DNA of 64,000 nt from an uncultured Nitrospiraceae bacterium (GTDB lineage: Bacteria > Nitrospirota > Nitrospiria > Nitrospirales > Nitrospiraceae), in contig CAVSTP010000003.1 of assembly GCA_963730935.1 (NCBI GenBank), positions 64,001-128,000 of the forward strand, in the 5' to 3' direction. The stretch's first letter is position 1. Every line of letters begins with the position of its first letter. Below, one piece after another: positions 979 to 21,403 of this stretch. The translations under genes were made by a program, and so were the position numbers. The notes beneath the pieces were generated by a model. It was not told the origin of the DNA. It did not search any database and worked only from the letters and a program-made list of their open reading frames with translations.

Positions 979-994
979 TGATCACTTTTGACCA
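979..994 (+). promoter_or_regulatory. candidate Crp/Fnr-type site TGATC-ACTTTT-GACCA
   Basis: One of seven copies of the motif; TATATT -10-like hexamer at 1016-1021 (21-nt gap). Confidence 0.6.
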
Positions 995-1123
995 GCCAAG
1001 CCATCCGTACCAGTCTATATTTTAAGAGAATGACGGCGGCATCACTGCCCTTATTTCTATTCTCTCTGGTCCGTCGCCAAGAGGAACTGAGGAAAGATCT
1101 ATCCACTAACCGAGGAGCACGTG

Positions 1124-1367
1124 ATGAATCAAGAACAATTCGGGCAGTTTTGGGAGCAACTCAGGACTCCACTGAAAGACACTTGGGCGAAGATAACGAT
1201 GGAGGATCTCGACGAGATTCAGGGCGATCTTGCCAAGTTTGGCTCGGTGCTACAGAGGCGATACGGCGAGTTGCACAAAGAGGAAGGTGACCATCTGGGC
1301 CGACCGCCGGTATTCCCATTGGACGGGAAATTATGCCGGTTACAAAGATCCTGAGCCTGTGTCCTAA
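1124..1367 (+). pseudogene. CsbD-like gene, second copy with a +1 frameshift
   Basis: Nearly identical to 1-216 but has an extra G at 1286-1287 (GAGGAAGGTGACC vs GAGGAAGTGAGC); the corrected frame continues VTIWADRRYSHWTGNYAGYKDPEPVS* to TAA 1365-1367. Confidence 0.7.
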
Positions 1368-1582
1368 CCCTGCGATGCGGACCTGTAGGGTGAATTTGGT
1401 ACTGAGCTACGCCGACTGTCCTATCCCTCGCGCCGTTCTCGACTTCTAAGCGCGATCCGATTCTCCAGTCTCCGCCGCTCCTCCTGTAATCTGTCTTGTC
1501 ACCTTGATCGCGTCCAGTGTTGTCTGTTTCATGGCGGAAGTACACTCGCGTCATCGAGTCGTCGCCGAGAGGAAGGAACCTG

Positions 1583-1879
1583 ATGAAAACTTACCTGGGG
1601 ATGAACCGGATCGTTTTGATTTCAATGGCCGCCTTCGCGTGGTCCGGGGTCGTATTGCCTCTTCGTGCGGAGGACAGACTCGTGGAGGGAGCCATGATTG
1701 TGGCCCCGAAGGAAGAGATTGCCCGAATCGCCAATGCCTCAGATGACACACTGACAGCCTGCTTAACGAGGATTCCCGTTCAGATGACCACTCAGCAGCG
1801 TATGACGGCGCAGCAGATCTGCCAAATAGAAGAGACCACGAGGCAGATAGTGCCACTCGTAGAAAAGGAAGGGAACTGA
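1583..1879 (+). CDS. secreted two-cysteine hypothetical protein (paralogue of 15988-16356)
   Basis: AGGAAGGA RBS, signal peptide, motif DTLTACLTRIP...QRMTAQQIC. Confidence 0.65.
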   Translation: MKTYLGMNRIVLISMAAFAWSGVVLPLRAEDRLVEGAMIVAPKEEIARIANASDDTLTACLTRIPVQMTTQQRMTAQQICQIEETTRQIVPLVEKEGN

Positions 1880-1881
1880 AC

Positions 1882-2013
1882 ATGTATCAAATCTACAGCC
1901 TACTGGGGTTGATGGTGATGACTTGGGGTATAGCGATCTGGGCCTCTATGCCCGAGGATCAAGATGGCCGCGCGGTGAGTAGCCCAACGGGTCTCCATAT
2001 GGGCACGAGCTAG
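1882..2013 (+). CDS. small single-pass membrane peptide (43 aa)
   Basis: MYQIYSLLGLMVMTWGIAIWASMPEDQD...; purine-rich RBS; below the ORF-track size cut-off. Confidence 0.5.
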   Translation: MYQIYSLLGLMVMTWGIAIWASMPEDQDGRAVSSPTGLHMGTS

Positions 2014-2023
2014 TTTTTAAGAC

Positions 2024-2539
2024 ATGAAGGGGACGGAAGTGGCTACTTTAATGCGTGGTTTGAGGAGTGGGTGGACGACGACGAATCCGACCGCCGATGC
2101 AAGGACCATCGGTGTGATGGAGAGGTTGGACGGCTTGGGCTACATGACCACCGGATTCAGTTTTCTCCTCATCGGCATGGTGGTATTCGCTCACTCCTGG
2201 TATGTCTTCCTCCTCTCCGTGGGATCAACAACGGTTCCCGCCGTGCTCGCGCTGGTTCATGATTTGCTGTTGGTCATTATCCTCTTGGAGTTGTTCCGCA
2301 CCATCATTAATTTTCTAAAAACCAAAGTCATCACGCTAGAACCATTTTTGTATATTTGCGTCATCGCATCGACCAGGCGAATCCTCACGACTGGCGCCCA
2401 GATTGCCTCGATGGAGGATCTCACCGATCAAGTGTTTCACCGGTATCTACTTGATCTGGGGTCGAATGTGCTTGTGGTTCTGGCCTTGGTTGTCGCGGTG
2501 TATCTCATGCGGCGGGCAGTTCCGGTGGCCGCTAGTTAA
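2024..2539 (+). CDS. phosphate-starvation-inducible PsiE-family membrane protein
   Basis: Four hydrophobic segments; LLLVIILLELFRT and EPFLYICVIASTRRIL motifs typical of the PsiE family. Confidence 0.75.
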   Translation: MKGTEVATLMRGLRSGWTTTNPTADARTIGVMERLDGLGYMTTGFSFLLIGMVVFAHSWYVFLLSVGSTTVPAVLALVHDLLLVIILLELFRTIINFLKTKVITLEPFLYICVIASTRRILTTGAQIASMEDLTDQVFHRYLLDLGSNVLVVLALVVAVYLMRRAVPVAAS

Positions 2540-2589
2540 GGAGCAGAATCGGTAAGTGTTTGTCCTACGCCCAGAAATGGAGGTGTGTG

Positions 2590-2997
2590 ATGCTCAAATT
2601 CCTACACCTGCTTGTGTCAGCAATGGTCATTGGAGTGCCGGCAGCAGGCCTCGCTCAATTTAGCGATAAAGGTGACCATGTTGAGGTGAAAAAGGGCACC
2701 AGGTTGTGTTCGAGCCTCGCGGTCGACGGAGTGAGGGGCACCTTGAATCAGCAGCCGATATTTTGGAAAGTCACGAGCCCCATACGTGCCAATGGCACGC
2801 AGACAGTTTCCGCGCTCGTCCATGAAACGGTCTATAACCGTAACAGCGGCGACACGACCACTGTGGAGAACCCGTATGACGAAGATTTTGCCACATTCTT
2901 CAAGCGAGCGCCGGAACATAAGGGGATGCTCCAAATGATTAGCCCGCAAGATGGAAACCTGCAAGCGATCGTCGAGATTTGCCGGAAGGAAAAATAG
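2590..2997 (+). CDS. secreted hypothetical protein (paralogue of 448-861)
   Basis: Same ATGGAGGTGTGTGATG start context as 448; shared QFSDKG.HVEVKKGTRLCSS and PE.KGMLQMISP.DG.LQAIVE.C. Confidence 0.75.
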   Translation: MLKFLHLLVSAMVIGVPAAGLAQFSDKGDHVEVKKGTRLCSSLAVDGVRGTLNQQPIFWKVTSPIRANGTQTVSALVHETVYNRNSGDTTTVENPYDEDFATFFKRAPEHKGMLQMISPQDGNLQAIVEICRKEK

Positions 2998-3000
2998 TTC

Positions 3001-3222
3001 ATGCCGATGCGTTGTCCGCGCTGCAAAGGGTTCATGGTTGCCACCCAGTTGAATGAACTATGGACCTCCGGCCAGGAAGACGGGTGGCGCTGCCTTCTGT
3101 GCGGTGAGAATATTGATCCTGTCATTGAAGGCAATCGGACGGGGCACGCCCCTCCGGTTCAGAGCCGTGCCCGTGTCCCCGGAGCTCCCACCGTCAAGTC
3201 CACAAAAGGAAGATCCAGGTGA
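3001..3222 (+). CDS. small zinc-ribbon protein
   Basis: CPRC...WRCLLCGE.ID...NR; paralogues at 9162 and 17917. Confidence 0.7.
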   Translation: MPMRCPRCKGFMVATQLNELWTSGQEDGWRCLLCGENIDPVIEGNRTGHAPPVQSRARVPGAPTVKSTKGRSR

Positions 3223-3266
3223 AGAGGGCACGCGTTGATCATCCGCTGTTGAGGGATTGGTGAGGC

Positions 3267-4163: not shown

Positions 4164-4189
4164 GAATTCCGGAGATCGAGAGGGCTGCC

Positions 4190-4288
4190 ATGCGCATTTG
4201 GACTGACGGACGTTCAGAAGTATTTCTGGGTTTCTACCTCATAGCCTGGGTGGTCGGGCTCGTCTTGACGCACATGCTTTCGAGATAA
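4190..4288 (+). CDS. small membrane peptide (32 aa)
   Basis: MRIWTDGRSEVFLGFYLIAWVVGLVLTHMLSR*; GAGAGG RBS. Confidence 0.45.
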   Translation: MRIWTDGRSEVFLGFYLIAWVVGLVLTHMLSR

Positions 4289-4651
4289 CCGCGAAACGAC
4301 GCGTCGCATCATCCAGTCGACCGCATTGGTGCTCATGACGAAAATGCAGAGGGTCTCTGAGGCGTTGGAGTTCGCTTTTCAGGCCTGTGACCACGGGCAG
4401 AGTGTTCAATACAGACCAGTATTCCGGTATAGCGAGCGGTATGTTGTTCTGACGCTTCGGCTACGCTGACTGCCTGCGCTTCCCGTTTCTCTCTTAGCGC
4501 GATCGATTTTCAGTCCCCACGCGCAACGCCAGACCGTCTGCCAGATTGGATAGTCCCCCGCAGATAAGCCGCTTGCGTGGTTGAGAATGAGTCATTGTTT
4601 GTTGAGAAGATGGTGTGTGCAACAGGTGTGTGCAACAAAGGGGGTTCTATT

Positions 4652-4990
4652 ATGAGACTTTTCACGATGACGATAGCAGCTCTCGCGTTTCTCGGAATGA
4701 CGGGGCTGGCCTTGGCAAACCCGTCGATGCTGCCAAAGCATCCAGGGTATCCGTCTGGTGGCGAGTTTGCGAACGATAAGGGCCAGAAGAATCTGACCTA
4801 TAGCCAATCCATATTGGAGGCCGCGACGTCCGGCGACACGAATATGATTCCGACGTTGATGGATCAGAACAATGTGGATCAGAACAATGCCAGGCTCATG
4901 GAACATGGCGGAGCCGGTCAATCGCCTGTGGTCGGATCGAACCTGAAGACTGAGCCTTCGGTGAAAGAAGGCGAGCGGATAAAGCAGTAA
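4652..4990 (+). CDS. secreted hypothetical protein
   Basis: AAAGGGGG RBS, signal peptide ending ALA-NP, PKHPGYP motif. Confidence 0.7.
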   Translation: MRLFTMTIAALAFLGMTGLALANPSMLPKHPGYPSGGEFANDKGQKNLTYSQSILEAATSGDTNMIPTLMDQNNVDQNNARLMEHGGAGQSPVVGSNLKTEPSVKEGERIKQ

Positions 4991-5097
4991 AGATCTGAAG
5001 GCCACAACGAGGCGTACTGAAACTGTCGGAGACGGGGGGTTGGCATGGGAAAGGAACGAACTCCCAGCCAAGCCCCGCGAGGTTGTGTGAGGCATCT

Positions 5098-6042: not shown

Positions 6043-6100
6043 GAAGGCCACCACAAATTTAAGGAGATTCGATGAGTGTTGGCGGCACGAGAGGTGTTCT

Positions 6101-6256: not shown

Positions 6257-6320
6257 TCAACGCATGAATGAAGCGGACCGCGCGGGCAGGGTCCTCACGG
6301 CATGTAACAAGGAGAATTCC

Positions 6321-7357: not shown

Positions 7358-8011
7358 ATGGCGCGTGCGCGTACAGCACCCTTTGATCCCCAGCTAGTTC
7401 TCAGCAAGGTGGGCAAGGGGAAAACCACTCTGCTATCCCCTAAAAAGCACATGATCTTCTCGCAAGGGGATGCCGCGGAGGCGGTGTTCTTTATCCAGAC
7501 GGGCAAGGTGAAGCTGACGGTGGTCTCGCAACAAGGCAGGGAAGCCGTTATTGCGATTCTGGAGCCGGGTGCATTTTTTGGACAATCCTGCCTTGCCGGA
7601 CAGGCCATTCGGACGGCGACCGCGACGGCCGTAGAAGACTCCAATATCGTGCGCATCAACAAGGACGCCATGATTCGCGTGCTGCACGAGGAGCCTACCT
7701 TCGCCGAGCTGTTTATGGCCTATCTGCTGGCGCACACCATTCGAGTCGAAGAGGATTTGGTGGATCAGCTCTTTAACTCCAGCGAGAAGCGACTCGCGCG
7801 AGTGCTGCTATTGTTGGCGCATTTTGGCAAAGAAGGGAAGCCGGAGACAGTCATTACGAAGATCAGTCAGGAAACGCTCGCCGAGATGATCGGTACCACA
7901 CGCTCGCGAGTGAGTTTTTTTATGAACAAGTTCCGGAAAATGGGTTTCATTGACTACAACGGTGAGTTGCACGTGCATAGCTCTCTCCTGAATATCGTCC
8001 TGCACGACTAG
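7358..8011 (+). CDS. Crp/Fnr-family transcriptional regulator
   Basis: cNMP-type beta-roll (IFSQGDAAEAVFFIQTGKVKL, GAFFG), SEKRLARVLL, HTH SQETLAEMIGTTRSRVSFFMNKFRKMG. Confidence 0.92.
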   Translation: MARARTAPFDPQLVLSKVGKGKTTLLSPKKHMIFSQGDAAEAVFFIQTGKVKLTVVSQQGREAVIAILEPGAFFGQSCLAGQAIRTATATAVEDSNIVRINKDAMIRVLHEEPTFAELFMAYLLAHTIRVEEDLVDQLFNSSEKRLARVLLLLAHFGKEGKPETVITKISQETLAEMIGTTRSRVSFFMNKFRKMGFIDYNGELHVHSSLLNIVLHD

Positions 8012-8717: not shown

Positions 8718-9161
8718 ACAGTTACCTGCCACCAAGCACATACCAGATAAGCAACATGTACGCACTCATGACCAATGTCATAAGGGCGAACAGGATACCC
8801 GCGAGTCCTAGAAGGTCCCAATCTATCTTCGAGACAACCATGTGTGATTATGGCGAGAAGTCCTGCAGCGGTCTGTGCTGAAGTGATCAGGTAGCAATCA
8901 CTAGATGAGGGTTGCCGTTGTCCAATAGTGGAAGACTCATGAAAATAAATATACCCGTGCTAATTCGTAGTCTTATGGGGTTGTCCGCGTGCTCGTCGCA
9001 TTGACTCACCACGCTTCAGGGTTATTGGGGTGTACAGTCAAGTGTTGAATCACGCGGTCTGCCTCATTCCCTCTCGCGCCCTCACTATTCCTTGCGCGTC
9101 TGATTCACGCCCGCTTCTACGGCGGTTTTGCGTGAGCTGTGTCGAGCCTGGGAGTCAACTC

Positions 9162-9362
9162 ATGAACTGCCCTCGTTGTCATGGTCTGATGGTGACCATC
9201 CGATTGGAAGATGCGGGAAGCTCTTCACTCTCCTTCTCAGGGTGGCGATGTCTGCTGTGTGGTGAGGTGATTGATTCGGGGATCAAAGCGAATCGGGAAG
9301 TGTTCCACGGACCAATGGGCAGCCGGGGCCATGCTCGATACGGCGTTTCGCTTGTGCCGTAG
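9162..9362 (+). CDS. small zinc-ribbon protein
   Basis: GGGAG RBS; MNCPRCHGLMV...GWRCLLCGEVID..I.ANR. Confidence 0.7.
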   Translation: MNCPRCHGLMVTIRLEDAGSSSLSFSGWRCLLCGEVIDSGIKANREVFHGPMGSRGHARYGVSLVP

Positions 9363-9609: not shown

Positions 9610-9954
9610 ATGGGAAAAAGCATGCAAATATCGTCAGTCCGCAATTGGTCCGAGGGCGTCGGCGATCGCGCCCACCAACATTTCGAAATTTGGTACGGCG
9701 AGGAGGAGCGAAAGAACACGCTCGTTGCCCGAGTCTGGGCGACCAAAGATGGCCCGCATAGCGTCGAACTCTATCGAGAAAGCTCACTAATTGAACCGGT
9801 GCGTGTTCGGGTATTGGAGGGACTAATGCGCGAACTGGACATACATCTCATGAAGGATGAACGAGATGTCCCTAAATATCTCCTGCACCATTGCTCAATG
9901 GCCTCCCACGGCTACAGTCCATACGGATGGATACAAATCAATCCCGGGCGATAG
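9610..9954 (+). CDS. hypothetical protein
   Basis: AGGAGGT RBS; 114-aa ORF. Confidence 0.6.
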   Translation: MGKSMQISSVRNWSEGVGDRAHQHFEIWYGEEERKNTLVARVWATKDGPHSVELYRESSLIEPVRVRVLEGLMRELDIHLMKDERDVPKYLLHHCSMASHGYSPYGWIQINPGR

Positions 9955-10077
9955 CGAACAGTGCAGAGCATCGACCGCCCAACCGAAATGTTTGATCGCT
10001 GGGAAAGAGAGGTGAGTGAGATGTATCAGGTTGGTGGGGCAAGCAATAGAAAATGTCCCCGGTGTTTTTGGGCAATT

Positions 10078-10093
10078 TGAGCAATTTTGGTCA
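10078..10093 (+). promoter_or_regulatory. candidate Crp/Fnr-type site TGAGC-AATTTT-GGTCA
   Basis: Motif copy; TAGTAT at 10116-10121 (22-nt gap). Confidence 0.6.
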
Positions 10094-10190
10094 GACAGCC
10101 CTCCCTCGAGAGACATAGTATGACATCGATGTTGGGACACCGTGTCCGTACGGGTAGTTGTGCTATCCGATCCTGTCAAAGGCAGTAGCC

Positions 10191-10512
10191 ATGGTGAAGC
10201 CTCCTGTCATGTTGGTAGGTAGTCTGTTCCTAAACATGGTGATGGTGTTCGGTTGTGCGAGCGGCTTCGGGGACCCGGCGAGTACATTCCCCGCGGGATT
10301 GTCCCAGCATCTGAGAGAACAGATGCTCCTCTATCGTGAGGAGAGCGCGGAACTCCGGGCCGCTGTATCGAGAGGAGTCTCAACGTTCTGCCGAGGAGTC
10401 GAGCCAGGAATCCGAACGGACCCGACGATATCGAGATTTTGCACAACAAGCTTGGGCGCAAGCTGAAGAGGCCGACCGGCATGCTGAAGAATACCAGGGT
10501 CGGTTGCTGTGA
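10191..10512 (+). pseudogene. frameshifted helical lipoprotein
   Basis: Lipobox VFGC in the first frame; a coiled-coil-like continuation (LYREESQRSAEE...AQQAWAQAEEADRHAEEYQGRLL*) lies in another frame from about 10363. Confidence 0.5.
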
Positions 10513-10564
10513 CGACCCCACCAGGTGGTTCCAACTCCGCACGTGAATGAAAGGACGTACGCCG

Positions 10565-10939
10565 ATGAAGTTAACACCGTTGCACGATTGGGTATTGATC
10601 CGGACCGGCGAGCCGAGCGAGAAGAGTGCCGGCGGCATTATCATTCCAGACACTGCGCAAGAGAGACCGGAGGAAGGAGAAGTCCTCGCTGTGGGGACCG
10701 GTCGCCTGATCGAGGATAAGGACTCGAAGGAGAAAATCAAGAAGAAGACATATGTGAAGACCACCCTTCAGCCGGGTGAGCATGTCCTGTACAAAAAATA
10801 CGCCGCCACACAAGTGGAGGGCGACGATGAAAAGTTGGTGCTGGTTCGTGAAGAGGATGTCCTGGGCACAAAGACTGGCGAGACGGCCATGCATCGGAGC
10901 ATTGGCTCCAAGCTTGAGCGAGAGATCCGAGTGCACTGA
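10565..10939 (+). CDS. groES: co-chaperonin GroES (orphan, with insertion and C-terminal extension)
   Basis: MKLTPLHDWVLI, mobile loop SAGGIIIPDTAQERP, GEVLAVGTG, VREEDVLG. Confidence 0.88.
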   Translation: MKLTPLHDWVLIRTGEPSEKSAGGIIIPDTAQERPEEGEVLAVGTGRLIEDKDSKEKIKKKTYVKTTLQPGEHVLYKKYAATQVEGDDEKLVLVREEDVLGTKTGETAMHRSIGSKLEREIRVH

Positions 10940-11042
10940 TATGTGGCAGCAGACGCAACTCAGATTGCGTTGATCTCTTCTCGATCGGGATCGTGTTGCT
11001 GGTGATCCACCTGGTCCGACGCACCGTCCGGATCTTCACCAT

Positions 11043-11058
11043 TGAGCACTTTTGACCA
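11043..11058 (+). promoter_or_regulatory. candidate Crp/Fnr-type site TGAGC-ACTTTT-GACCA
   Basis: Motif copy; TAGCAT at 11080-11085 (21-nt gap). Confidence 0.65.
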
Positions 11059-11285
11059 GCCTCCCTTCCTCTAGAGGCATAGCATTCAACGTATACCCCG
11101 TCATTAGGTACTCACCGACCATGCGGGAGGGGAGGAAGTTTATCACCGTCAGAACAGAAACCATGGGAAGTTGGGTTCTCGGGCCGATGTTGCACGCGAT
11201 CTCAGCGGTCCGAGGATGACAGGAAGCCTCGGGCGACTCATGATCGGCCAAATAGTACGGGGGCATTCCCCGCAAGGAGGAAATC

Positions 11286-11900
11286 GTGAAAGAAACCACA
11301 TCGACATCGGCGCATCCTGGAACCACAGCGTCTCGGACGTCCCGAAAGGAAGGAATCGTGAAGGAAGCACTCGGTCTGACGGACGTGAAGACGCTCCGGG
11401 ATCGGGCTCGTGAAGGGATTGAGGACGGCGCCATGACATCGGGTTACAAGGCCAACGCAAAGACGGTGATCAAGCTCTTGAATGATGCCCTCGCGACGGA
11501 AATCGTCTGTGTCCTTCGCTATAAGCGCCATTACTTCATGGCCACTGGGATCAGCTCCCTCAGCGTGAAGGGCGAGTTTCTCGAACATGCCACTGAGGAG
11601 CAAGCCCATGCCGATCAATTGGCCGAACGCATTGTCCAACTCGGGGGAGAGCCGAATCTGTCCCCTGAAGGGATGCTGAACCGAAGCCACTCGGAATATG
11701 TCGAAGGGGAAACTTTGGTGGAAATGATCACGGAAGACCTGATCGCCGAACGGATCGCGATTGAGAGCTATCGCGAAATGGTCGCTTATGTCGGCACGGA
11801 TGATTCGACGACCCGCCAGCTCTTAGAGGGGATTCTTGCGCAAGAAGAAGAACATGCAGAGGATCTGGCCGGCCTCCTGGATGACGGTATGGTGGTCTAG
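11286..11900 (+). CDS. ferritin-like (bacterioferritin/Dps-like) protein
   Basis: LNDALATE, EEQAHAD...ERIVQLGGEP, DLIAERIAI, EEEHAEDL di-iron motifs; AAGGAGG RBS. Confidence 0.88.
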   Translation: MKETTSTSAHPGTTASRTSRKEGIVKEALGLTDVKTLRDRAREGIEDGAMTSGYKANAKTVIKLLNDALATEIVCVLRYKRHYFMATGISSLSVKGEFLEHATEEQAHADQLAERIVQLGGEPNLSPEGMLNRSHSEYVEGETLVEMITEDLIAERIAIESYREMVAYVGTDDSTTRQLLEGILAQEEEHAEDLAGLLDDGMVV

Positions 11901-12103
11901 TGGGGCATGGCGGTCTGCTGGTCGCCCTGGCCAAGCACGGTGCAGGGGGGCCACGGCCATCACGGTTGTCGTCGAGGCACGTATCGCCGCTGACCAGCCG
12001 ACTGGGACGCGCTAGTCGGGAGCATCATTGTCGATCGCTGGAGAAGAGCGGCAAGCTCAACGATCTTCTTGCGAACAAGTCTTCAAAGCGGGAGAGCGTG
12101 ACC

Positions 12104-12637
12104 GTGAGGACCGTCACATTACTGGGGAGTGCTCTGATGAGCATGACTCTACTGATCGGATGCATCGACAGGACCGAGCAGCCGCTCCTCCAGGTGCAGA
12201 AGGAGTTGGAACAGCTGTTCGGGACTGCATTGCTCAACGGTGATATCAGGATGCAGCGGGCCCGCGATCATCTCACCGTCGTGATGACCGAACGGCTGCT
12301 GTTCGATGCCGGGAGTCATGAGGTCAAACCCGATGGTATCGACTTGCTTAAGCAGATGGGCGTTCTTTTCAAAGCAGCTTCTCTCAAGGAAATCCGGGTT
12401 GCCGGGCACGCCGACAAGGCCTCGATCGATGACCATTCCGACGAGTATTTCGAGAAGTTGGCCCTATCCAAAGCACGTGCGACTCAAACGGTCCATGTTC
12501 TGCAGGAGAATGGAGCGGCTTCGCAGAGCTTTATCATTGAATGGTATGGAGACATCCGACCGATCGCAAGCAATGAGACTGAAGATGGGCGGCGAATGAA
12601 TCGACGTGTCGAGATTGTTCTGTATGGCGGAATCTGA
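12104..12637 (+). CDS. OmpA/MotB-family lipoprotein
   Basis: Lipobox LIGC; LLFDAGS, IRVAGHAD, LSKARA, YGDIRPIASNETEDGRRMNRRVEI. Confidence 0.82.
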   Translation: MRTVTLLGSALMSMTLLIGCIDRTEQPLLQVQKELEQLFGTALLNGDIRMQRARDHLTVVMTERLLFDAGSHEVKPDGIDLLKQMGVLFKAASLKEIRVAGHADKASIDDHSDEYFEKLALSKARATQTVHVLQENGAASQSFIIEWYGDIRPIASNETEDGRRMNRRVEIVLYGGI

Positions 12638-12682
12638 GCGGATACTCTCATCAGTGAACTGCAGGGGTCACGGGCAAACATT

Positions 12683-13189
12683 ATGATGAATCTGGACTTG
12701 ACCGCCGTTCTCTTCTTGCTTTCGGGCACTGCTGCCGGCATCGCAGTGATCTATTATTCATTCGGGATGGCTCGTGAATGGTTTAGAGAACGGCATCATT
12801 CCGGCAAAGGCATCTTCCGCAAGAAGAACACACCGGAAACGTCTCTCAATGCACACATTGCCACCGAATGGACTGAGGGTCGTCTCCGGTTGGACTCTAT
12901 TTTAACTCTGATCAAATCAGTTGCGGAATTGTTAGAGAAGGAAGTGAAGGCACTGCGGCGACTCGATCATTCAGATCCACGGTATGAAGGGGAGGTTCGT
13001 CAAATGGTCGGACCCACCCTGCGCTGCTTCACCTTCGATAAGCATTTGCGAGATGAGTGCCGCGTGCTGATTCCGCTCCTGCGATTCTGCGCCCAGGATC
13101 TCGCGCAATCGCAGGGTCTGGACATGACACAAAAATTGACCGTCCTCGATGAGATCCAAGCTGTCATCGAGTCGGTCGACCTCCACTGA
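12683..13189 (+). CDS. hypothetical membrane-anchored protein
   Basis: N-terminal TM segment followed by a helical domain. Confidence 0.55.
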   Translation: MMNLDLTAVLFLLSGTAAGIAVIYYSFGMAREWFRERHHSGKGIFRKKNTPETSLNAHIATEWTEGRLRLDSILTLIKSVAELLEKEVKALRRLDHSDPRYEGEVRQMVGPTLRCFTFDKHLRDECRVLIPLLRFCAQDLAQSQGLDMTQKLTVLDEIQAVIESVDLH

Positions 13190-13209
13190 CAGGCGAAAGG
13201 GGCGCAAGG

Positions 13210-13359
13210 GACTACCAGACGCAGTTTAACCGTATTATGCGCGATGATTCCTATGCGGGACTTGTGAAAAGGCTTAAGCAGGAGGGTGTGTCGCCAAAGT
13301 GTTTTGAGAGGACGGCGCCTGCCGTTGCGCTGTCGTCGATGCACACGGTTCCTCGGTAA
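13210..13359 (+). pseudogene. orphan 3' fragment of an mlaC-like gene
   Basis: DYQTQFNRIMRDDSYAGLVKRLKQEGVSPKCFERTAPAVALSSMHTVPR* aligns with the C-terminus of the 17026 protein (NHRAQFARIIRDTSYAGLVEQMQQRGLVVKVFEKTTPVITLSSMHTFAAP). Confidence 0.75.
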
Positions 13360-13430
13360 GAATAATCTTCAGCCATTCACAATGCCGGCGGACTCGACCG
13401 CCGCCGTCTTTGTGAGAAAGGCGGTGGTCC

Positions 13431-13802
13431 ATGGCAAATCCTCGAACTTCGTCCGTCCGCAAAGAAATTCAAGAGTATCTCCAATGCTGCGAATGTCTGC
13501 TGTCAACCGCTCTCCTGCCCAAGAGTCCAGGGTTATCCGAAGACGAAGAGGGTATAGTTGAATATTATGCCGTTGAACTCTCAAAGCTAAATCCGCGACA
13601 GCGGAGTAAGTTGGAGTACCGCCATAGTGTCCTGGAATATATCCGCCTCAGCGAAGTCCTCTTGAAAGTCGATAATCTTTCTGACCAGGAGCATGAACAG
13701 ATGCAGCAAATGTTGAAGCAGGTTGCCATCAAACTGCTCAACTCAGGGCCCGGTGCTAAACCGAAAGCCGAATATCATTCTCTACTCGCTCTCTACAGTT
13801 GA
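13431..13802 (+). CDS. small helical protein with two copies of a helical-hairpin module
   Basis: KEIQEYLQCCECLLS...LSEDEEGIVEYY and HSVLEYIRLSEVLL...LSDQE; related to 14001 and 46456. Confidence 0.65.
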   Translation: MANPRTSSVRKEIQEYLQCCECLLSTALLPKSPGLSEDEEGIVEYYAVELSKLNPRQRSKLEYRHSVLEYIRLSEVLLKVDNLSDQEHEQMQQMLKQVAIKLLNSGPGAKPKAEYHSLLALYS

Positions 13803-13848
13803 CCATTGTCGAAACTCGCCCACGCCGGAAGATTAACGCCAAGCGGGC

Positions 13849-13864
13849 TGAGCGATTTTGACCA
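13849..13864 (+). promoter_or_regulatory. candidate Crp/Fnr-type site TGAGC-GATTTT-GACCA
   Basis: Motif copy; TAATGT at 13887-13892 (22-nt gap). Confidence 0.6.
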
Positions 13865-14000
13865 GATTGGTACTAGTCTACTCATTTAATGTCGAAACTC
13901 TACGGAGCCGATGACGTGGAAATGAATGGTTTGCCACGTTACCTTTGTGCCGACTGGGTGAAGCTTGCTGACTGATCGTTGAGGAAAGAAAGACACGCCC

Positions 14001-14216
14001 TTGCTGGTGCTCACCAAAGAAGTACAGACGTTTATTCGTGCCTGCGAGCATCTCCTCTCTATGCCTTCTTCGCCTCCGATCTGTGATGATGAGCGAGCCC
14101 TTGTTAACTATTACATACAAGAGCTTGTGAATAAGTACGGTGCCCCGAAGGCGGACAGAGCCGGTTCGGCGGAGTCATGTGCCACTGGTCAGGGAACCCA
14201 GTCCCTGCGGTCATAA
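14001..14216 (+). CDS. small helical-hairpin protein
   Basis: LTKEVQTFIRACEHLLS...DDERALVNYYIQEL; paralogue of 46289-46456. Confidence 0.6.
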   Translation: MLVLTKEVQTFIRACEHLLSMPSSPPICDDERALVNYYIQELVNKYGAPKADRAGSAESCATGQGTQSLRS

Positions 14217-14750
14217 CTGCTATCCGCCGCCAGGCCCGGAGAAAGGCAAAGTGTTAGCCCGGATTTAAGTCCGGATATGGAGATGCGAATCAATGAGCAG
14301 ATTACCGTTATCGTTCGGCGACACTCAGCAGCGGTAGTCGAAGTCTACCGTCACGGTGACTGGTCTGGAAAACATGAAATATTCCCTGCATGCCATTCCG
14401 ATCGAGGTTCTTGCACTGGCCTTCATTGAGTTCGTCTTCGTGAGTACTTTGGCCGCAGTGCTTTGGTACATGTTTGGCCACAAGTGACTCTTTGTTATTC
14501 ATCAGAAGATTCAGCGTGGACAATTCTTTCATTTGGAGAATTGTTTTTTTACCTTCTTGCCTGCTCGGCCAGGGCCGTCATCGTGCTTAGCTTTTCCAGC
14601 CTCGACACTCCTTCCTCCCTAGGCGATTGAGGGCGCCGCCTGGTCGTCGATACGCACTGCTGCCTGCTCCTCAGTAAGAAGAACTTCTTTTCGCGACCGG
14701 CTGGAATGTCAAACCTAAACGTTAACGCCCGCTTGCCGGCTGGCTTTCAG

Positions 14751-14766
14751 TGAGCTGTTTTGACCA
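14751..14766 (+). promoter_or_regulatory. candidate Crp/Fnr-type site TGAGC-TGTTTT-GACCA
   Basis: Motif copy; CATACT at 14788-14793 (21-nt gap). Confidence 0.6.
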
Positions 14767-14855
14767 ACTTGCCACGGGCCAGCCGCCCATACTGTAGATC
14801 ATCAAAGGTTGAGAACATGTTTTCCTATTCGCATAGGAAGGAAGAGGTGATTCAT

Positions 14856-15824
14856 ATGCAGGCAACTTATGAACAGTGGTCGCAGGGGAGGGGTCATATT
14901 CAGTGGGGAGCGATCGTTGCCGGTCTGGCCGTCGGCCTTGCCGTGCAAATGCTCTTTACCTTGCTGGGATTGGCCATCGGGGCATGGTCGATCGATTTAC
15001 GAGAGGCCCAACCCACAGGCGGTATCCCATTAGCGACCGGTCTCTGGACGGGCATGTCCATGTTGATTTCCGCATTCGTCGGAGGCTATGCCTCTTCGCG
15101 TTTGTCCGGAGCCTCTAGCAGGACAGAGGGCCTATACCACAGTGCCGTACTCTGGGGTGTGACGTCGGTAGTTTTCGCATGGCTCGGCACGACGGCGCTG
15201 TCATTCATGATCGGAGGGCTGTTTACCACGTTGGGTGGTGGGTTACAGATGCTGAGCCAAGGCGTCGGCACGGCGGTGTCGGCGGCGGCATCAAAACTGC
15301 CGAGTGCGGACACGGCCAACATCACAGCGGCCGACCTTCGCAATCAGATCGAGTCTGTTCTGAAAGCGACCGAGAAGCCTGAATTGCAGCCCAGTGCGAT
15401 GAACAAGAAACTCGACAAGACAAGTGCTCAAGTACGAGAGGGCCAATCGCTTCAGAAAGTGAGCGATTCGACCATTAGTGAAATTCGAGACAAACTGGCT
15501 GCCATGGACCGCGATGCGGCAGTGAATGTCATGGTGAACAAACTAGGCATGTCAGAAAAACAGGCTCAAGAAGTGGCCCAATCCGTCATCGGCATGGTGG
15601 AGAGCGTCAAGCAGGCAGGTAAGGGAATCAAGGAGCAATCCATGGACCTCGGTAATGCCACGATGACACGTGTTGGATCTGCAGCCTGGTGGCTTTTTGT
15701 CCTGGCGGTGCTTTCGCTTGGCGCATCGCTTATCGGGGGAGCGCTCGGGACTGGCGGAGAGTTTTTAAGTCGACTGCAAGGTAGGGCATATCCCCTGGAG
15801 GTAAAACCGGCGATGAATAACTGA
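14856..15824 (+). CDS. conserved integral membrane protein with a large helical loop
   Basis: IQWGAIVAG, LLGLAIG, AFVGGYASSRLSG, GLYH..VLWG and C-terminal AAWWLF TM segment; GAGGTG RBS. Confidence 0.75.
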   Translation: MQATYEQWSQGRGHIQWGAIVAGLAVGLAVQMLFTLLGLAIGAWSIDLREAQPTGGIPLATGLWTGMSMLISAFVGGYASSRLSGASSRTEGLYHSAVLWGVTSVVFAWLGTTALSFMIGGLFTTLGGGLQMLSQGVGTAVSAAASKLPSADTANITAADLRNQIESVLKATEKPELQPSAMNKKLDKTSAQVREGQSLQKVSDSTISEIRDKLAAMDRDAAVNVMVNKLGMSEKQAQEVAQSVIGMVESVKQAGKGIKEQSMDLGNATMTRVGSAAWWLFVLAVLSLGASLIGGALGTGGEFLSRLQGRAYPLEVKPAMNN

Positions 15825-15987
15825 TGGTCAGGACCCTCCGGACGGCCTCGGTCAAAGCGCAACCGTCGTTGGCTCTGTCGCCGAGTCCGTTCGCGAGCCG
15901 TAGAAAAGGGAAAGCGGGTACTTAAACGATGGGCTGGTCGAGCAAGGGTGGCGGCGCCACCTTAAATTCTCTAGAGGAGGCCACACC

Positions 15988-16356
15988 ATGACACGTCTCT
16001 TCACCAAGCAGACAATTTGTATTCTAGCAATATTGTTGAGTGGCTTCCTTGAAGCGGCGCCTATACAGGCTCAAGACCAAGCGCCGACAGTTGCTCCTGG
16101 AACCGATGCGACTATGGAGGGGGACATCGCAGCTGGTTCAGTTGAAGACACAATACGGGCCTGTATGGGCAGGATACCAAAAGATGCCAGTATCGGTCAG
16201 GTGATGATTGCAGAGCAAAGTTGCTGGCGGGATGAAAATGAACGCAAACCCGTACAGGCGATTCCCGGCGCACGCAGCACAGGCCTGACGTCTCCTGCGG
16301 AGCATCGTTCGGCAGTGGAGAGTGCCGATCGTGCCTCGATGGTCGTCTCTAAATGA
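15988..16356 (+). CDS. secreted two-cysteine hypothetical protein (paralogue of 1583-1879)
   Basis: GAGGAGG RBS, signal peptide, EDTIRACMGRIPKDASIGQVMIAEQSC. Confidence 0.7.
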   Translation: MTRLFTKQTICILAILLSGFLEAAPIQAQDQAPTVAPGTDATMEGDIAAGSVEDTIRACMGRIPKDASIGQVMIAEQSCWRDENERKPVQAIPGARSTGLTSPAEHRSAVESADRASMVVSK

Positions 16357-16457
16357 AGGCGTGTCGATCGGAGTCGACTCCCATAACGTTATTGCATCAT
16401 CTGGTGTGAAACAGGACAAGACCGCGTGGGAGATAGAAGAAGGAAAAGGAATCCTCT

Positions 16458-16886
16458 TTGTTACCATCGAAGCCCATTGCCACCCAGGTGTTAGAATCCC
16501 TGGCGCGTAACCCCGCCTGCGAGTTCAAGCAGCTGGTCGCCGATTGCCCCGAATTCACCTGGAACCAACTCTTTTATGAGGTCGATTGGTTGAGCCAGCT
16601 CGGTCAGCTGTGTCTGACATCAGTCGGCGGTCACTACTCCATCAGTCTCCCCACATCCATAGGGGAGACCATGACGCCTGGACAGCCACAACCCTTCTCA
16701 CGAACCAGCGCAACCGATCGGCCCACTCCTGCTCGCCTAGATGGCGAACCCGGGCCGGTCGCGCCGGTTGACCGGCACGTCTGGATTGCCCAACGGGCGT
16801 ATCAGCTCTATGAAGCGCAAGGCCGGCGGGACGGCCTCGCGTTGGTGCATTGGCTCCAAGCCGAAGGCGAGTTCCCATTGCACTGA
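16458..16886 (+). CDS. winged-helix-like domain fused to a DUF2934-like domain
   Basis: N-terminal ..PEFTWNQLFYEVDWLS..GQL.L (paralogue of 22193); C-terminal IAQRAYQLYEAQGRRDGLALVHWLQAE is the DUF2934 signature. Confidence 0.7.
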   Translation: MLPSKPIATQVLESLARNPACEFKQLVADCPEFTWNQLFYEVDWLSQLGQLCLTSVGGHYSISLPTSIGETMTPGQPQPFSRTSATDRPTPARLDGEPGPVAPVDRHVWIAQRAYQLYEAQGRRDGLALVHWLQAEGEFPLH

Positions 16887-16924
16887 TATGGCTGCATCCG
16901 CGCGCTTCATCAATTCTCCAAAAC

Positions 16925-16940
16925 TGTGCGATTTTGACCA
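16925..16940 (+). promoter_or_regulatory. candidate Crp/Fnr-type site TGTGC-GATTTT-GACCA
   Basis: Motif copy; TAGAAT at 16962-16967 (21-nt gap). Confidence 0.65.
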
Positions 16941-17025
16941 GATGACCATCCCTTAGAAGGATAGAATGCATCATGAAGCAGCATTAGTGTTTGTGCATAT
17001 GCATCACTCTAGTCGGCCGGGTACC

Positions 17026-17784
17026 ATGCAATCATATCTCGCTTCATGGATTGTTGTTTGCGGAATGGCCATCGCAGTAACTGGATGCGCCCTGGTGCCC
17101 TTCAACAAGACCCCGGTAGCCGATAACGTAAATCACAATTCGCTGCGGGGACAGCCGGCGACCAGAGACGCCGTCATGCGAGTGGGGCCAAACGACAACT
17201 CTCCTACTTATGCGGTGAAAAGCACGTTCACCGAGTTACTCTCCATTCTCGGGAATGAGGCACTGAAGCAGCCGGACCTGTTTGAGGAACGCCGCCAACA
17301 AATTGCGCGAGTCATACGACACCGTGTCAATTATGGGCAAATGGCTCAACGCTCTCTGGGGGCTCCTTGGACGGGACTAAATGACACGGAGCGGCAGGAA
17401 TTTGTGCGCCTCTATGTTCAGTTACTACGGGATACGTTTGCCAACAAGATCGAGGAATATCACGACGAACAGATGGTCTATCTCTTTGAACGACGTGTGG
17501 GCAGCTTTGCCGAGGTCGGAACCAAGCTGATTGGCTCCAAGGTTGATACCTGGTTAGATTTCCGGTTAGCAGAACAATCCGGCGATTGGCTCGTCTACGA
17601 CGTGGTCATTGACGGCGCCAGCATCGTGGGAAACCACCGGGCACAGTTTGCCCGTATTATCCGCGATACCTCTTACGCAGGACTTGTGGAGCAGATGCAG
17701 CAGCGGGGCCTCGTCGTGAAAGTGTTTGAAAAGACCACACCTGTTATCACGCTGTCATCAATGCACACGTTCGCCGCTCCGTAA
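17026..17784 (+). CDS. MlaC/Ttg2D (HpnM-like) lipid-binding periplasmic lipoprotein
   Basis: Lipobox VTGC; MAQRSLG..W..L...ERQEFV and W.VYDVVIDGASIV...RAQF motifs. Confidence 0.85.
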   Translation: MQSYLASWIVVCGMAIAVTGCALVPFNKTPVADNVNHNSLRGQPATRDAVMRVGPNDNSPTYAVKSTFTELLSILGNEALKQPDLFEERRQQIARVIRHRVNYGQMAQRSLGAPWTGLNDTERQEFVRLYVQLLRDTFANKIEEYHDEQMVYLFERRVGSFAEVGTKLIGSKVDTWLDFRLAEQSGDWLVYDVVIDGASIVGNHRAQFARIIRDTSYAGLVEQMQQRGLVVKVFEKTTPVITLSSMHTFAAP

Positions 17785-17916
17785 CCCGCCACCCCACGTT
17801 GGCGTGGGAAGGTGACACGTTTCGCAAGGACGTGAAACGAGTCGTCAACAGCTGACGGCACACAGACCGGAGGTGGATCGGAAGGTCCACCTCCGAGCTC
17901 TTGAGAAAGGACGGCC

Positions 17917-18162
17917 ATGCCTCTGGATCCGGACTGCACTCTCATGCTGGTGGATAAATCCACAGGAAGCCCCGTGCGTTGCCAACGGTGCGAGGGACTA
18001 CTCGTTTACGAAAAGTTCGATGAGCTGAGATATGGGACCGGCGGCCTGTGCCCGGCAACACGGTGCATCAATTGTGGATGTATCGAGGATTCCGTGGTTC
18101 GTGTCAATCGCCTCCACCCTCCTATGGCACAGCGAATGGCGTCTCACGGGATGGTGAGATAG
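17917..18162 (+). CDS. small zinc-ribbon protein
   Basis: RCQRCEGLLV...RCINCGCIED.V...NR. Confidence 0.65.
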   Translation: MPLDPDCTLMLVDKSTGSPVRCQRCEGLLVYEKFDELRYGTGGLCPATRCINCGCIEDSVVRVNRLHPPMAQRMASHGMVR

Positions 18163-18434
18163 GGCGGTGGCGTATTCCTCAGATCCCAATCTGAAGCAAT
18201 GGTTGCGGTTGAAAAGAATCAGCGGCTAGGAGCGCATGGGTGACGGACGTCGCCTGTCTGCCTGCTGAGCATCTGAGAGAGGGTCCCTGGAGCCGCCAGG
18301 GAGGACTCCGTGTGAGATCGCTGTCCCATAAGCGACGAAATGCTAGTTAGAGATTCCGAGAAGACTAGCCGAGCTATCAAGCCCAAGGCAGTGCGTCCTC
18401 CGTGGCCGCACCTGTCCTCAAGGCAGGAGGGGTG

Positions 18435-20363
18435 ATGAATCTTATTCAACCAGTGCGACCATCTCTATCAACAGAGAGTTCGGTACGACGCCTACTCCTG
18501 GTGGATCCCTATCCTCGAAACAATCCCTACCACCTCACGGCATCGGAACGCCGAGCCGTATGGTTTCCAAAACTGAGTTTGCCGGTCATCGCTGCTTATA
18601 CACCTGAGTCCTGGTCCGTCGATCTCGTGGACGAAGCTGTCCAGGATGTCAATTTCGATCATCCCTGTGACCTCGTGGGCATCTCCGTTATGACCTGTTA
18701 CGCCCCCCGCGCCTACGAGATTGCCACGGAGTTCAGGAAGCGAGGGAAGAAAGTTGTGTTGGGTGGTGTTCATCCCACCTATTGTCCGGAAGAAGCTTTG
18801 CAGTTCTGTGACGCGGTAGTGTGCGGTGAGGCTGAAGACCTGTGGCCCGAGGTGATAGCCGACTTCATGGCTGGGGCACTGCAGCGCACATACAAGATGA
18901 CAGCGTTTCCCGCGCTGGACCATTACAAAAGTCCGCGGGTGGAACTGTTGAGTCCCGATGCCTATATGACCCGCCAGTGCAGTTTCACGACGCGCGGCTG
19001 TCATTTTGATTGCGAGTTCTGCAGCGTTTCCCCGTTTAACGGCAAAACCACCCGGCGCCGGCCGGTCGAGGAGGTCATCAAGGAACTGACTCAGGTGAAG
19101 CGGTGGGTCTGCGGGGAACTGGTGGACCGCATGTCGAATGACACCCTCTGGAATGCTTTCCTGACTGGATTGCGCATCCGATTGGGTATCGAAGACGGCA
19201 GTATCGTGGCCTTCGTGGATGACCTCCACAACAGCAACCGGGCCTACTGCCGCGAACTGTGGGCCGCTCTGAAACCCTTGAACATCAAATGGGGCTGCCA
19301 ATCCACGTTGTTCTTGGGTGACGACGAGGACATGGTCAAGCTGGCAGCCGAGAGCGGTTGTGTGTCGGTGTTCGTCGGAATGGAATCACTCGATGAAGGT
19401 GCCTTAGCAGAGACGAATAAGCCGTTTAATCGAGTGGAGAAGTTCTCACAAGAGATCAAGATGTTTCATGATCACGGCATCATGGTGAATCCGGGGATTG
19501 TTTTCGGGTTCGATCACGACGACGAATCGGTGTTCGAGCGAGCCGTGGAGTTTCTCACCAAGAACCAGGTGGAATTGGCCTATTTCAACGTCCTCACGCC
19601 CTTGCCGGGGACGGCACTCTTCGATCGCTACAATGCGGCGGGCCGCATCTTCGACCGCGACTGGGCCAAATATGACGGGAAGCATGTCGTCTATCGTCCT
19701 AGTCGCATGACACCGGAGCAGCTACAGGAAGGATTCTTTTGGGCCAACCATCAGTTCTATTCACTTTCCTCCATCTGGAGACGCCTCTCCGGTACCAGCC
19801 AGCGGTTCGTTCCCCGATTGATCATGAATCGAGAGTTTCGCAGGTTGGTGAAACGATCATGTCCCCCGGGGTCCTTATCGCTAGTCGCGACGGCACTCAG
19901 GACATTGCAAGCAAAACTGCCGACATTACAAGTCGCGCACCTGATTCCGAATGCCTTGCATGTGACGAAAGAGAATCGGGAGGGTGAAATCTCGCATGCC
20001 GAGAATCGCTGGTTGAGCATCAAGGCAAAACGGCATGATCAATGCGCGGCCCTGTTCGTAGATCTCGAGGGGACCTTGGATCAGGCCAGCACGCAAGAAT
20101 TGGTCGAGCGGATCACAGAGGCGGCAAAGCGTGCAAGACTCGACATCATCATCAATTTCGAGCATCTGAAGGACGCTACACCAGAGGCTCTACGGGCATT
20201 GGCCGATAGTGAGTTATGGCGAGCCGTCGTGCCATACGCGAAGATACACTACCGGAAGTTCAAGGCGGCGTTCGAGGCGTCGCTCGATGGACTCTCGATT
20301 CCCCGGCTTAGTCTCTTGGGCGAAGATTTCTCCGAGGCAGGAGTTTCACTGCCGGCGAGGTGA
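18435..20363 (+). CDS. cobalamin-binding radical SAM enzyme with a C-terminal STAS-like domain
   Basis: B12-binding domain (DLVGISVMT, VVLGGVHPT, GEAE), CxxxCxxC in RGCHFDCEFCSV, FVDD, VGMES, LTPLPGT; AGGAGG RBS. Confidence 0.9.
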   Translation: MNLIQPVRPSLSTESSVRRLLLVDPYPRNNPYHLTASERRAVWFPKLSLPVIAAYTPESWSVDLVDEAVQDVNFDHPCDLVGISVMTCYAPRAYEIATEFRKRGKKVVLGGVHPTYCPEEALQFCDAVVCGEAEDLWPEVIADFMAGALQRTYKMTAFPALDHYKSPRVELLSPDAYMTRQCSFTTRGCHFDCEFCSVSPFNGKTTRRRPVEEVIKELTQVKRWVCGELVDRMSNDTLWNAFLTGLRIRLGIEDGSIVAFVDDLHNSNRAYCRELWAALKPLNIKWGCQSTLFLGDDEDMVKLAAESGCVSVFVGMESLDEGALAETNKPFNRVEKFSQEIKMFHDHGIMVNPGIVFGFDHDDESVFERAVEFLTKNQVELAYFNVLTPLPGTALFDRYNAAGRIFDRDWAKYDGKHVVYRPSRMTPEQLQEGFFWANHQFYSLSSIWRRLSGTSQRFVPRLIMNREFRRLVKRSCPPGSLSLVATALRTLQAKLPTLQVAHLIPNALHVTKENREGEISHAENRWLSIKAKRHDQCAALFVDLEGTLDQASTQELVERITEAAKRARLDIIINFEHLKDATPEALRALADSELWRAVVPYAKIHYRKFKAAFEASLDGLSIPRLSLLGEDFSEAGVSLPAR

Positions 20364-20420
20364 CCTCAACTCCGCTGCGAAAACACTCCTTTCACAAAGA
20401 CCGTTCGCACGTTCCGCACT

Positions 20421-21275
20421 ATGTGGTTCTCTTTGACCATATTTGTTGTTCGCCTTCAGACTTGGACAGTCGTCGCGGTCATCATCGCGATGATCGGTCT
20501 CATGGGCTCGCCGGCAGGCACCGCGCCAATTGCGGTGCGGTTTCCGCAGGGCATTGCCCACGGCTTTCTGCTCGTGCGGTCGAGCGCCGGGGAAATCATT
20601 GGCCACGGTGAGATGACTCAGGTCGTCAAAGAGGGAGATCTGCTCGACAGCCGTTTGGTCTTCAATTTCAAGGACGGCTCTCTGCACGATGAGAAAGTGA
20701 CCTTCTCTCAACAGGGTGTGTTTTCGATGCTCCGTTATCACCTGGTGCAGCGAGGCCCGTCGTTTCCGGACCAGATCGAGGTCTCGATCGACCGCAGGAC
20801 GGCGGAATACAAGGTCCGTTCGAGAACGGGGGAGGAAGGGAAGGAAGAGGTGCTGGCCGGAGCCTTGACGCTTCCCAAGGATGTGTACAACGGCATCTTT
20901 GTCACGATGTTGCTGAACCTGCCGAAAGGGGCGAGCGAAATAGTGAACTTTCTCGCCTTCACGCCCGCGCCGGAGATCTTCAAGCTGGAGCTGCAGCTGA
21001 CAGATGAGCAGCACACCGTCCAGATCGGCGAGCTGTCACGGAAGGCGCTGCACTACGTCTTTAAGCCGGACATCGGCATGATTCGGGAGTTGCTCGGTAA
21101 GGCCACCGGCAAGATCCCGTCCCATTTTCACTATGACTGTTGGATCCTGGCCGATGAGGTGCCGAGCTTCGTGCGATTTGAAGGGCCCTTACAACTCATG
21201 GGGCCGGTCGTGCGGATCGAACTGTTGAGCCCCCGTCTGTTGACGAAGCCCGAAGACAAGACGGCCTCGAAATAG
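20421..21275 (+). CDS. conserved secreted beta-rich hypothetical protein
   Basis: Signal-like N-terminus, strong coding bias, PIAVRFPQG.AHGFL and WIL..EVPSFVRFEGPL motifs. Confidence 0.75.
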   Translation: MWFSLTIFVVRLQTWTVVAVIIAMIGLMGSPAGTAPIAVRFPQGIAHGFLLVRSSAGEIIGHGEMTQVVKEGDLLDSRLVFNFKDGSLHDEKVTFSQQGVFSMLRYHLVQRGPSFPDQIEVSIDRRTAEYKVRSRTGEEGKEEVLAGALTLPKDVYNGIFVTMLLNLPKGASEIVNFLAFTPAPEIFKLELQLTDEQHTVQIGELSRKALHYVFKPDIGMIRELLGKATGKIPSHFHYDCWILADEVPSFVRFEGPLQLMGPVVRIELLSPRLLTKPEDKTASK

Positions 21276-21387
21276 CGTTGGGTCAGCAATTTCGCCTGGA
21301 TATATCACCCTCCGCTACGAGCATTCTCCGGATGAGACATCGGTGGTTGTGAGGGGGAATGCCTTTCCTGTTCTTATTTCCTCAAAA

Positions 21388-21403
21388 TGAGCAATTTTGA
21401 CCA
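21388..21403 (+). promoter_or_regulatory. candidate Crp/Fnr-type site TGAGC-AATTTT-GACCA
   Basis: Motif copy 59 nt upstream of ATG 21463; only a weak -10 (GGTACAT) at the expected distance. Confidence 0.6.

Follow-up and report, generated by a model that had tools for sequence, protein, structure and literature searches.

The window analysed here, a 64,000-nucleotide stretch from an uncultured Nitrospiraceae bacterium, corresponds to C3:64001-128000 of a 4.05-Mb genome (G000), with C2, C3, and C4 denoting its contigs. Its left part carries seven 16-bp boxes at positions 979, 10078, 11043, 13849, 14751, 16925, and 21388, all on the + strand and with the letters reported in a preliminary description of the region. 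Within the same part, at 7358-8011 (+), lies the gene for a 217-residue Crp/Fnr-family regulator, with a cyclic nucleoside monophosphate (cNMP)-binding domain, a Crp helix-turn-helix (HTH), the recognition helix RSRVSF, and Gln76 replacing a conserved Glu. On sequence evidence, we put the probability at roughly 85% that the box is the operator bound by the RSRVSF Crp/Fnr subfamily and that this subfamily acts there as an activator.

Box 1 (979-994) is followed by the -10-like hexamer TATATT (1016-1021) and lies upstream of a CsbD/YjbJ-like open reading frame (ORF; 1121-1354), whose match to NF007748 (E = 1.2e-6) is below the model cut-off. Box 2 (10078-10093; TAGTAT, 10116-10121) precedes a lipoprotein-like ORF starting at about 10191 and groES (10547-10939), and box 3 (11043-11058; TAGCAT, 11080-11085) precedes a ferritin/bacterioferritin-like gene (11286-11900) and an OmpA-family gene extending to 12637. 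Box 4 (13849-13864; TAATGT, 13887-13892) is situated upstream of the ORF of a 71-residue mini-protein (14001-14216), box 5 (14751-14766; CATACT, 14788-14793) upstream of a membrane protein gene without a Pfam match (start about 14847-14856, end 15824), and box 6 (16925-16940; TAGAAT, 16962-16967) upstream of an MlaC-family gene (start 16999 or later, end 17784). These six hexamers are located 21-22 nucleotides (nt) past the box end, as originally described; box 7 (21388-21403), upstream of a lipoprotein-like ORF (start about 21463, end 22071), has a weak -10, GTACAT (21425-21430), at 21 nt. Two weaker boxes absent from the earlier list also have a -10-like hexamer at 21 nt. One, at 8874-8889 on the - strand (20.1 bits), is followed by CATAAT (8852-8847) and faces the small ORFs 8841-8722 and 8595-8338; the other, at 4403-4418 on the + strand (17.4 bits including the -10 model), is followed by TATGTT (4440-4445) and a secreted-type ORF (4577-4990). 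The single orientation claimed at first thus holds for the seven listed boxes and not for every site. Intergenic placement stands with small caveats: box 11043 overlaps short open frames, among which a tested 29-residue frame has no Pfam match, and the true starts must be downstream of the longest-ORF starts 14760, 16966, and 21397, each of which is inside a box or a -10. To the right of 21.5 kb in the window, no site scores in either the matrix scan or the scan for box, GAC, and -10 described below, as had been stated. Assembled contigs from 4 of 16 RNA runs over 9800-22300 cover genes and intergenic DNA alike and cannot show 5' ends or levels.

The 5-N6-5 form in which the box was first described is a weak description of it. 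With one mismatch allowed, TGAGC-N6-GACCA has 10 matches versus 4.9 expected, a count reached by 3 of 100 shuffles, and fails to catch box 10078; a pattern fitted post hoc to the seven boxes has 7 matches versus 0.01 expected. The information is distributed across all 16 positions, the conserved middle included, and the motif forms a pseudo-palindrome with TGAGCAAT as its left half and WTTGMHCA as its right half, followed by GAC.

The expectation that such boxes would be enriched beyond the window is borne out genome-wide. A matrix built from the seven sites finds 29 sites of at least 18 bits, versus 1-6 for each of eight column-permuted matrices, and 19 of the 22 strong sites outside the window are also outside called genes, the calls coming from a crude caller that covers 82% of the genome as coding. 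These sites are concentrated in a small number of islands (C3 30-85 kb, C2 625-652 kb, C2 891-900 kb, C4 7-10 kb, and C4 325 kb). The class II promoter geometry proposed from the window is recovered at the held-out sites, where TAnnnT occurs 20-22 nt past the box in 11 of 22, versus 780 of 29,694 random intergenic positions (2.6%); on the opposite side of the box, it occurs at 1 of 29 sites.

In the available text of PMC10187061 (the other papers cited below being likewise represented by the parts available), the hallmark of class II promoters is a distance of 22 bp from the site to the second base of the -10. The distance from the box to the first -10 base is 21 nt, equal to this spacing; the dyad lies 22 bp from the second -10 base, its centre would be near -41.5, and the -35 is poor. 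The box overlaps the -35 position, contains TTGACC, and is fixed in orientation relative to the -10, all of which would also suit an RSRVSF Crp that binds the box and mainly represses, or a box that is an extended element of an alternative sigma factor. Both are very improbable on the remaining evidence: at 22-23 nt, the TTGACC is too distant from the -10 for a sigma70-family promoter, in which the -35 and -10 are separated by 17 ± 1; the hexamer found at 17 nt is poor (CAGCCA, CAGCCT, CAACTT, CAGATG, CAGACC), as expected for activator-dependent promoters; the phase is fixed to 1 bp, which is typical of class II activation; and perfect palindromes in other phyla, presented below, point to a dimeric factor. 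A sigma-54 enhancer reading, with sites resembling those of ZraR or NorR, was dropped, only TA...T at 21-22 nt being conserved within 60 nt downstream; no dedicated sigma-54 scan was made.

Both CRP/FNR superfamily domains of the window regulator score over their cut-offs (PF00027, 76 bits; PF13545, 45 bits), and its closest named homologues come from Nitrospira. Five Crp HTH matches exist in the genome. Three belong to full paralogues of 77-80% identity with the helix TT-RSRVSF, namely the window copy, C3:851570-852232, and C4:1427694-1428356; the other two comprise one NnrR/FNR-like protein, judged by eye, and one second type with a degenerate helix. The window copy is the only paralogue of the three with Gln at the conserved cNMP-pocket Glu, a replacement also present in 21 of its 120 closest relatives; hence the active paralogue may be another. 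Gln171, Thr181, Arg182, Arg184, and Ser186 are kept in 98-101 of 101 homologues, with the helix residues Arg182, Arg184, and Ser186 conserved in 100, 101, and 98, respectively. The subfamily is very large, with at least 8000 homologues at E ≤ 1e-30, and comparisons with NCBIfam and solved structures found no close solved or named member. Box C3:853001 (-) is directed towards two small ORFs, with the paralogue C3:852232-851570 behind them, an arrangement through which this paralogue might, more speculatively, amplify its own synthesis. Three broken remnants of the crp subfamily were also observed (C4:1794908-1794651, C2:892622-892518, and C3:61647-61516), and the last of these decayed tails ends about 80 nt before box C3:61422, in the same layout as intact crp-box pairs.

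The association suggested between the box and the Crp subfamily of 7358-8011 is supported among 60 relatives, 15 of which have both, 4 the box only, 2 the regulator only, and 39 neither. In the genus alone, 14 genomes combine the exact box pattern with the RSRVSF protein and 14 have neither, with 3 box only and 1 regulator only. In both genomes counted as regulator only, the crp stop is followed 70-85 nt on by a matrix site, and three of the four box-only relatives are 74-85% complete assemblies. Neither box nor regulator is present in four members of the genus whose assemblies are complete or nearly so (G001, G009, G025, and G031), and this absence from the best-assembled members may explain why the pair went unseen. 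The second Crp type shows no association with the box in the genus (10 both, 7 box only, 8 protein only, 7 neither; p = 1.0).

The linkage extends over Nitrospirota, Acidobacteriota, Alphaproteobacteria, and Methylomirabilota. The GTDB genomes scanned gave 79 loci around relatives of the protein; after six Nitrospirota loci and one duplicate were dropped, 72 foreign loci remained, from Acidobacteriota, Alphaproteobacteria, one Methylomirabilis, and a few unplaced proteobacteria. In these loci, the window-trained matrix finds 116 sites in 59 loci, versus a mean of 6.7 (maximum 18) for 30 permuted matrices, and at 18 bits it finds 53 sites versus 0.33 in the permuted controls. A site is present within -300/+400 nt of crp in 42 of the 72 loci, the density being 1.01 per kb near crp versus 0.094 elsewhere; 22 loci have a same-strand site 20-130 nt past the crp stop, and 18 have one at most 300 nt upstream. 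Eight further crp loci, five of them from genomes missed by the exact pattern, all have a site within 500 nt, and among five plasmid loci, sites occur in three (Methylocapsa, Bradyrhizobium, and Acidisarcina) and in none of the other two. Ten loci around the second Crp type were the control; eight lack any site and two show one marginal hit. When the ORFs of the 72 loci are clustered, crp and overlapping frames aside, every cluster is limited to 21 loci or fewer; the recurrent clusters include CsbD-like (12) and GroES-like (6) proteins, named by eye.

These data bear on the possibility that another transcription factor of the same stress islands, either of the NarL/LuxR type or the second Crp type (C2:652625), binds the box, with the RSRVSF crp merely as target or neighbour. 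NarL/LuxR-type response regulators can likewise work from about -42, GerE-type HTH matches number 21 in the genome, NarL-type regulators are encoded in 10 of the 72 foreign loci, about 250 nt behind the second Crp type there is a box (C2:652357), and box-bearing genomes without an RSRVSF protein exist. The second Crp type was nevertheless rejected as binder, since it does not track the box in the genus and eight of the ten loci around it lack a site. Moreover, the box that directly follows the crp stop in 22 of the 72 loci would drive the next gene and not crp, no other family is present in more than 21 loci, and the 16-bp dyad from TG to CA fits the CAP/Clr frame (PMC10187061, available text). 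A different binder is therefore unlikely, and the RSRVSF subfamily is the preferred candidate.

The foreign sites also define the anatomy of the element across phyla. The profile of the 116 sites is T98 G96 A69 G77 C96 A81 A70 T95 for the left half and T67 T86 T95 G95 A67 x C98 A95 for the right half, with positions inside the box biased by the selecting matrix; the positions outside, free of this bias, read G75 A61 C53, with no further conservation before TA...T at about 21-22 nt. Among the three offsets allowed, the best -10 lies at 21 nt in 63 sites, 22 nt in 45, and 20 nt in 8. The distal half is conserved (TGAGCAAT in 48 of 116 sites) and the proximal half varies, and the perfect palindrome TGAGCAATATTGCTCA is present in alphaproteobacterial loci. 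Some alphaproteobacterial loci with the same helix (L054, L067, L091, L092, and L093) share a variant whose right end is TATACA. Trained on the foreign sites, a combined model of box, GAC, and -10 yields 31 genomic hits of at least 20 bits, in 30 places, and six permuted controls yield none. It recovers the seven boxes, although not fully independently, as the training sites were picked with the seven-site matrix. On this sequence basis, the box is likely to mark about 30 promoters in the genome. That the boxes are relics of a duplicated segment or a mobile repeat without a regulatory role has a negligible probability: some sites do have duplicated flanks and adjoin decayed crp tails, as at C3:61422, but the foreign sites carry near-zero information outside the box, GAC, and -10 position, no Rfam family is found in window 1-24000, and the same spacing recurs in four phyla.

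Several observations weigh against the assignment of the box to the RSRVSF subfamily as an activator. No box adjoins the window crp or the C4 paralogue. Half of the held-out sites (11 of 22) have no strict TAnnnT, and several are recent duplicates with similar flanks (C3:30638/C4:326482; C2:891027/895068), so the independent cases are a few fewer than counted; kin in the counts of relatives are likewise not independent. The 99% complete relative G036 has one box without a good -10 and no RSRVSF protein. In Acidobacteriota, the exact pattern occurs in 8 of 101 genomes (2 control hits) and the regulator in 4, with both in 2, one of which is the seed genome; no subfamily member was found in five of six checked acidobacterial box-only genomes, including G243, where two exact boxes were seen (L113:6096 and L114:6354), neither with a clear -10. 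In Hyphomicrobiales, the exact pattern occurs in 12 of 151 genomes versus 7 control hits, the regulator in 5, and both in 2, the latter being the only genomes with at least three boxes. Such profiling of whole orders or phyla is low-powered, the regulator being rare and single hits being near the control level. The box-only genomes may reflect chance hits, assembly gaps, or orphaned sites, and a second binder is conceivable there. Furthermore, linkage cannot distinguish a gene that encodes the binder from a gene that is a target.

Under the preferred reading, an RSRVSF Crp dimer would bind the box centred near -41.5, upstream of a housekeeping-sigma promoter, and act as a class II activator of small stress-type, envelope, and signalling genes. 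At a 17-nt spacer, the -35 position consists of the last two box bases and the following GAC; the -35 consensus is TTGACA, and the GAC after the box matches its positions 3-5. The CA-GAC would thereby keep the GAC of the consensus 17 nt before the -10, and sigma region 4 would keep its GAC contacts beside the activator, which would explain why the orientation of the box is fixed; the degeneracy of the proximal half would likewise follow from its overlap with the -35 position. The first helix Arg is predicted to read G2 as in CAP and Clr, and the invariant third-position Arg to recognize the inner CA, a role comparable to that of Lys197 for the inner bases of the Clr site.

The subfamily shares with Escherichia coli CAP/CRP the cNMP-binding and Crp HTH architecture and the first helix Arg, and the box shares with the class II sites of CAP the 16-bp dyad, the TG...CA ends, and the 22 bp to the second -10 base (PMC10187061). 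CAP employs R180, E181, and R185 in its helix (PMC10187061). In contrast to CAP, the subfamily has the helix RSRVSF instead of RETVGR, a site with an informative centre instead of TGTGA-N6-TCACA, and a patchy, island-borne distribution, and its RS and TS cAMP signatures are replaced by R-M/I/L/T and I/V-E; the NCBIfam CRP score of the window protein is 56 versus a cut-off of 266. Neither the RExxR helix with the TGTGA-N6-TCACA site nor the complete cAMP signature of CRP proper (E72, R82-S83, T127-S128) is found. Clr of Sinorhizobium meliloti (PDB 7PZA) lacks the helix Glu and reads conserved inner bases with positions 1, 3, and 5 and a Gln in the helix preceding the recognition helix, and its site has a 4-base spacer (PMC10127613). 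The RSRVSF proteins similarly have no Glu at helix position 2 and conserve Arg, Arg, and Ser at positions 1, 3, and 5 together with Gln171, which suggests a Clr-like (cluster G) recognition logic by analogy. Nevertheless, the helix and site differ from those of Clr (RPKVNR and HGTYHC-N4-GRWACA; GTNNC-N4-GNNAC for the cluster), the similarity amounts to only 51 bits, and Clr has retained the RS and TT ligand signature, changed in the subfamily, and is responsive to both cAMP and cGMP (PMC10127613).

The best solved relatives are the actinobacterial CRP (Rv3676-type, PDB 3H3U/3D0S) and GlxR (4CYD), with 72-77 bits over residues 20-203; they keep the RETV helix and T/N in the C-helix, where the subfamily has RSRV and V/E. 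FNR, FixK, NnrR, and NtcA have the superfamily and the class II logic in common with the subfamily, in which the ExSR helix motif of FNR (PMC3590769, available text) and the four Fe-S cysteines are absent. The window protein scores far from the NCBIfam cut-offs for NtcA (60/245), Fnr (40/228), FixK (31/300), and LdrP (44/300). By these comparisons, the pair is predicted to work like a class II CRP regulon, with a regulator that is not a member of CRP, FNR, NtcA, or Clr. Neither the non-palindromic AT-rich 12-bp RedB motif (PMC9603854) nor the TGT...ACA site of TTHB099 (PMC7662524) matches the box, and the Nitrospira NnrR-like regulator predicted earlier (PMC8510549) is a different protein type. 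The available text of PMC12531629 makes no mention of Nitrospira or Acidobacteria. No description of the box or subfamily was found in the literature searched; most subscription journals, supplements, and RegPrecise-type databases lay outside that search and might contain an earlier prediction.

Among the 101 homologues, the ligand pocket retains Gly75, Glu76, and Arg85, with Glu in 99 and Arg in 92. The place of Ser83 is occupied by M/I/L in 87, and that of T127-S128 by I/V/L-Glu; Cys78, the sole conserved Cys, is kept in 98. The genome has one gene for a class III nucleotide cyclase. Given the altered RS/TS signature, recognition of the activating ligand probably differs from that of cAMP by CAP.

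Beyond the window, putative targets include genes for Transgly_assoc, BrkB/YihY, PRC-barrel, and TM2 with zinc ribbon proteins, a receiver-PAS-HisKA_3 run, small Cys-rich ORFs, and many proteins without a family; of 42 proteins scanned, 21 have no Pfam match. General stress regulons typically contain CsbD, ferritin-like, and Transgly_assoc genes. A small helical protein family without a Pfam match has more than 10 copies in the genome, some of them behind boxes or adjoining Crp paralogues; these include window 13431-13802 and 14001-14216, C3:852903, C3:23247, C3:24692, C3:110459, C3:128024, C2:410764, C2:415395, C4:536695, and C4:1430317, one copy being duplicated exactly. Small two-CxxC, zinc-ribbon-like ORFs recur in the box islands (window 3001-3222, 9030-9362, and 17917-18162; C4:7988; C2:626108). 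By eye, local duplications are visible in the first 3 kb of the window (secreted proteins 448-861 and 2560-2997; CsbD-like segments 12-407 and the 1121-1354 region). A 2930-residue glucan synthase-like gene (22711-31503) of the same island and a trehalose/glycogen-type cluster at 49018-61932 (TreS-, GlgE-, maltokinase-, and GlgB-like by eye; DUF5752 by Pfam) have no box and would therefore be under other control. To the right of the box region, 32001-38438 encodes a PocR-HisKA_3 kinase, several single receiver domains, and a NarL-type regulator (36730-37377, -). A search of the genome for AMO gave no match, and neither did its control, which leaves no basis for a comammox call.

A broader and more tentative possibility, which we hold to be less probable than not, is that the RSRVSF Crp and its box constitute a portable general-stress switch of soil bacteria in several phyla, with housekeeping sigma, self-feedback, spread by islands and plasmids, and a non-cAMP trigger. 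Such a switch would do via housekeeping sigma what SigB, RpoS, or EcfG do in model bacteria, and its trigger could be another nucleotide read by the I/V-E C-helix pair or the oxidation of the conserved pocket Cys78. The class II mechanism itself is textbook, and the value to a specialist is useful rather than startling. The box and the RSRVSF helix would add a new helix-to-site pair to the CRP/FNR recognition code, and three small soluble proteins with 30 sites provide material for a direct in vitro test. For the organisms themselves, the proposed operator would make many hypothetical small genes in Nitrospira, acidobacteria, and rhizobia-related bacteria a predictable regulon.

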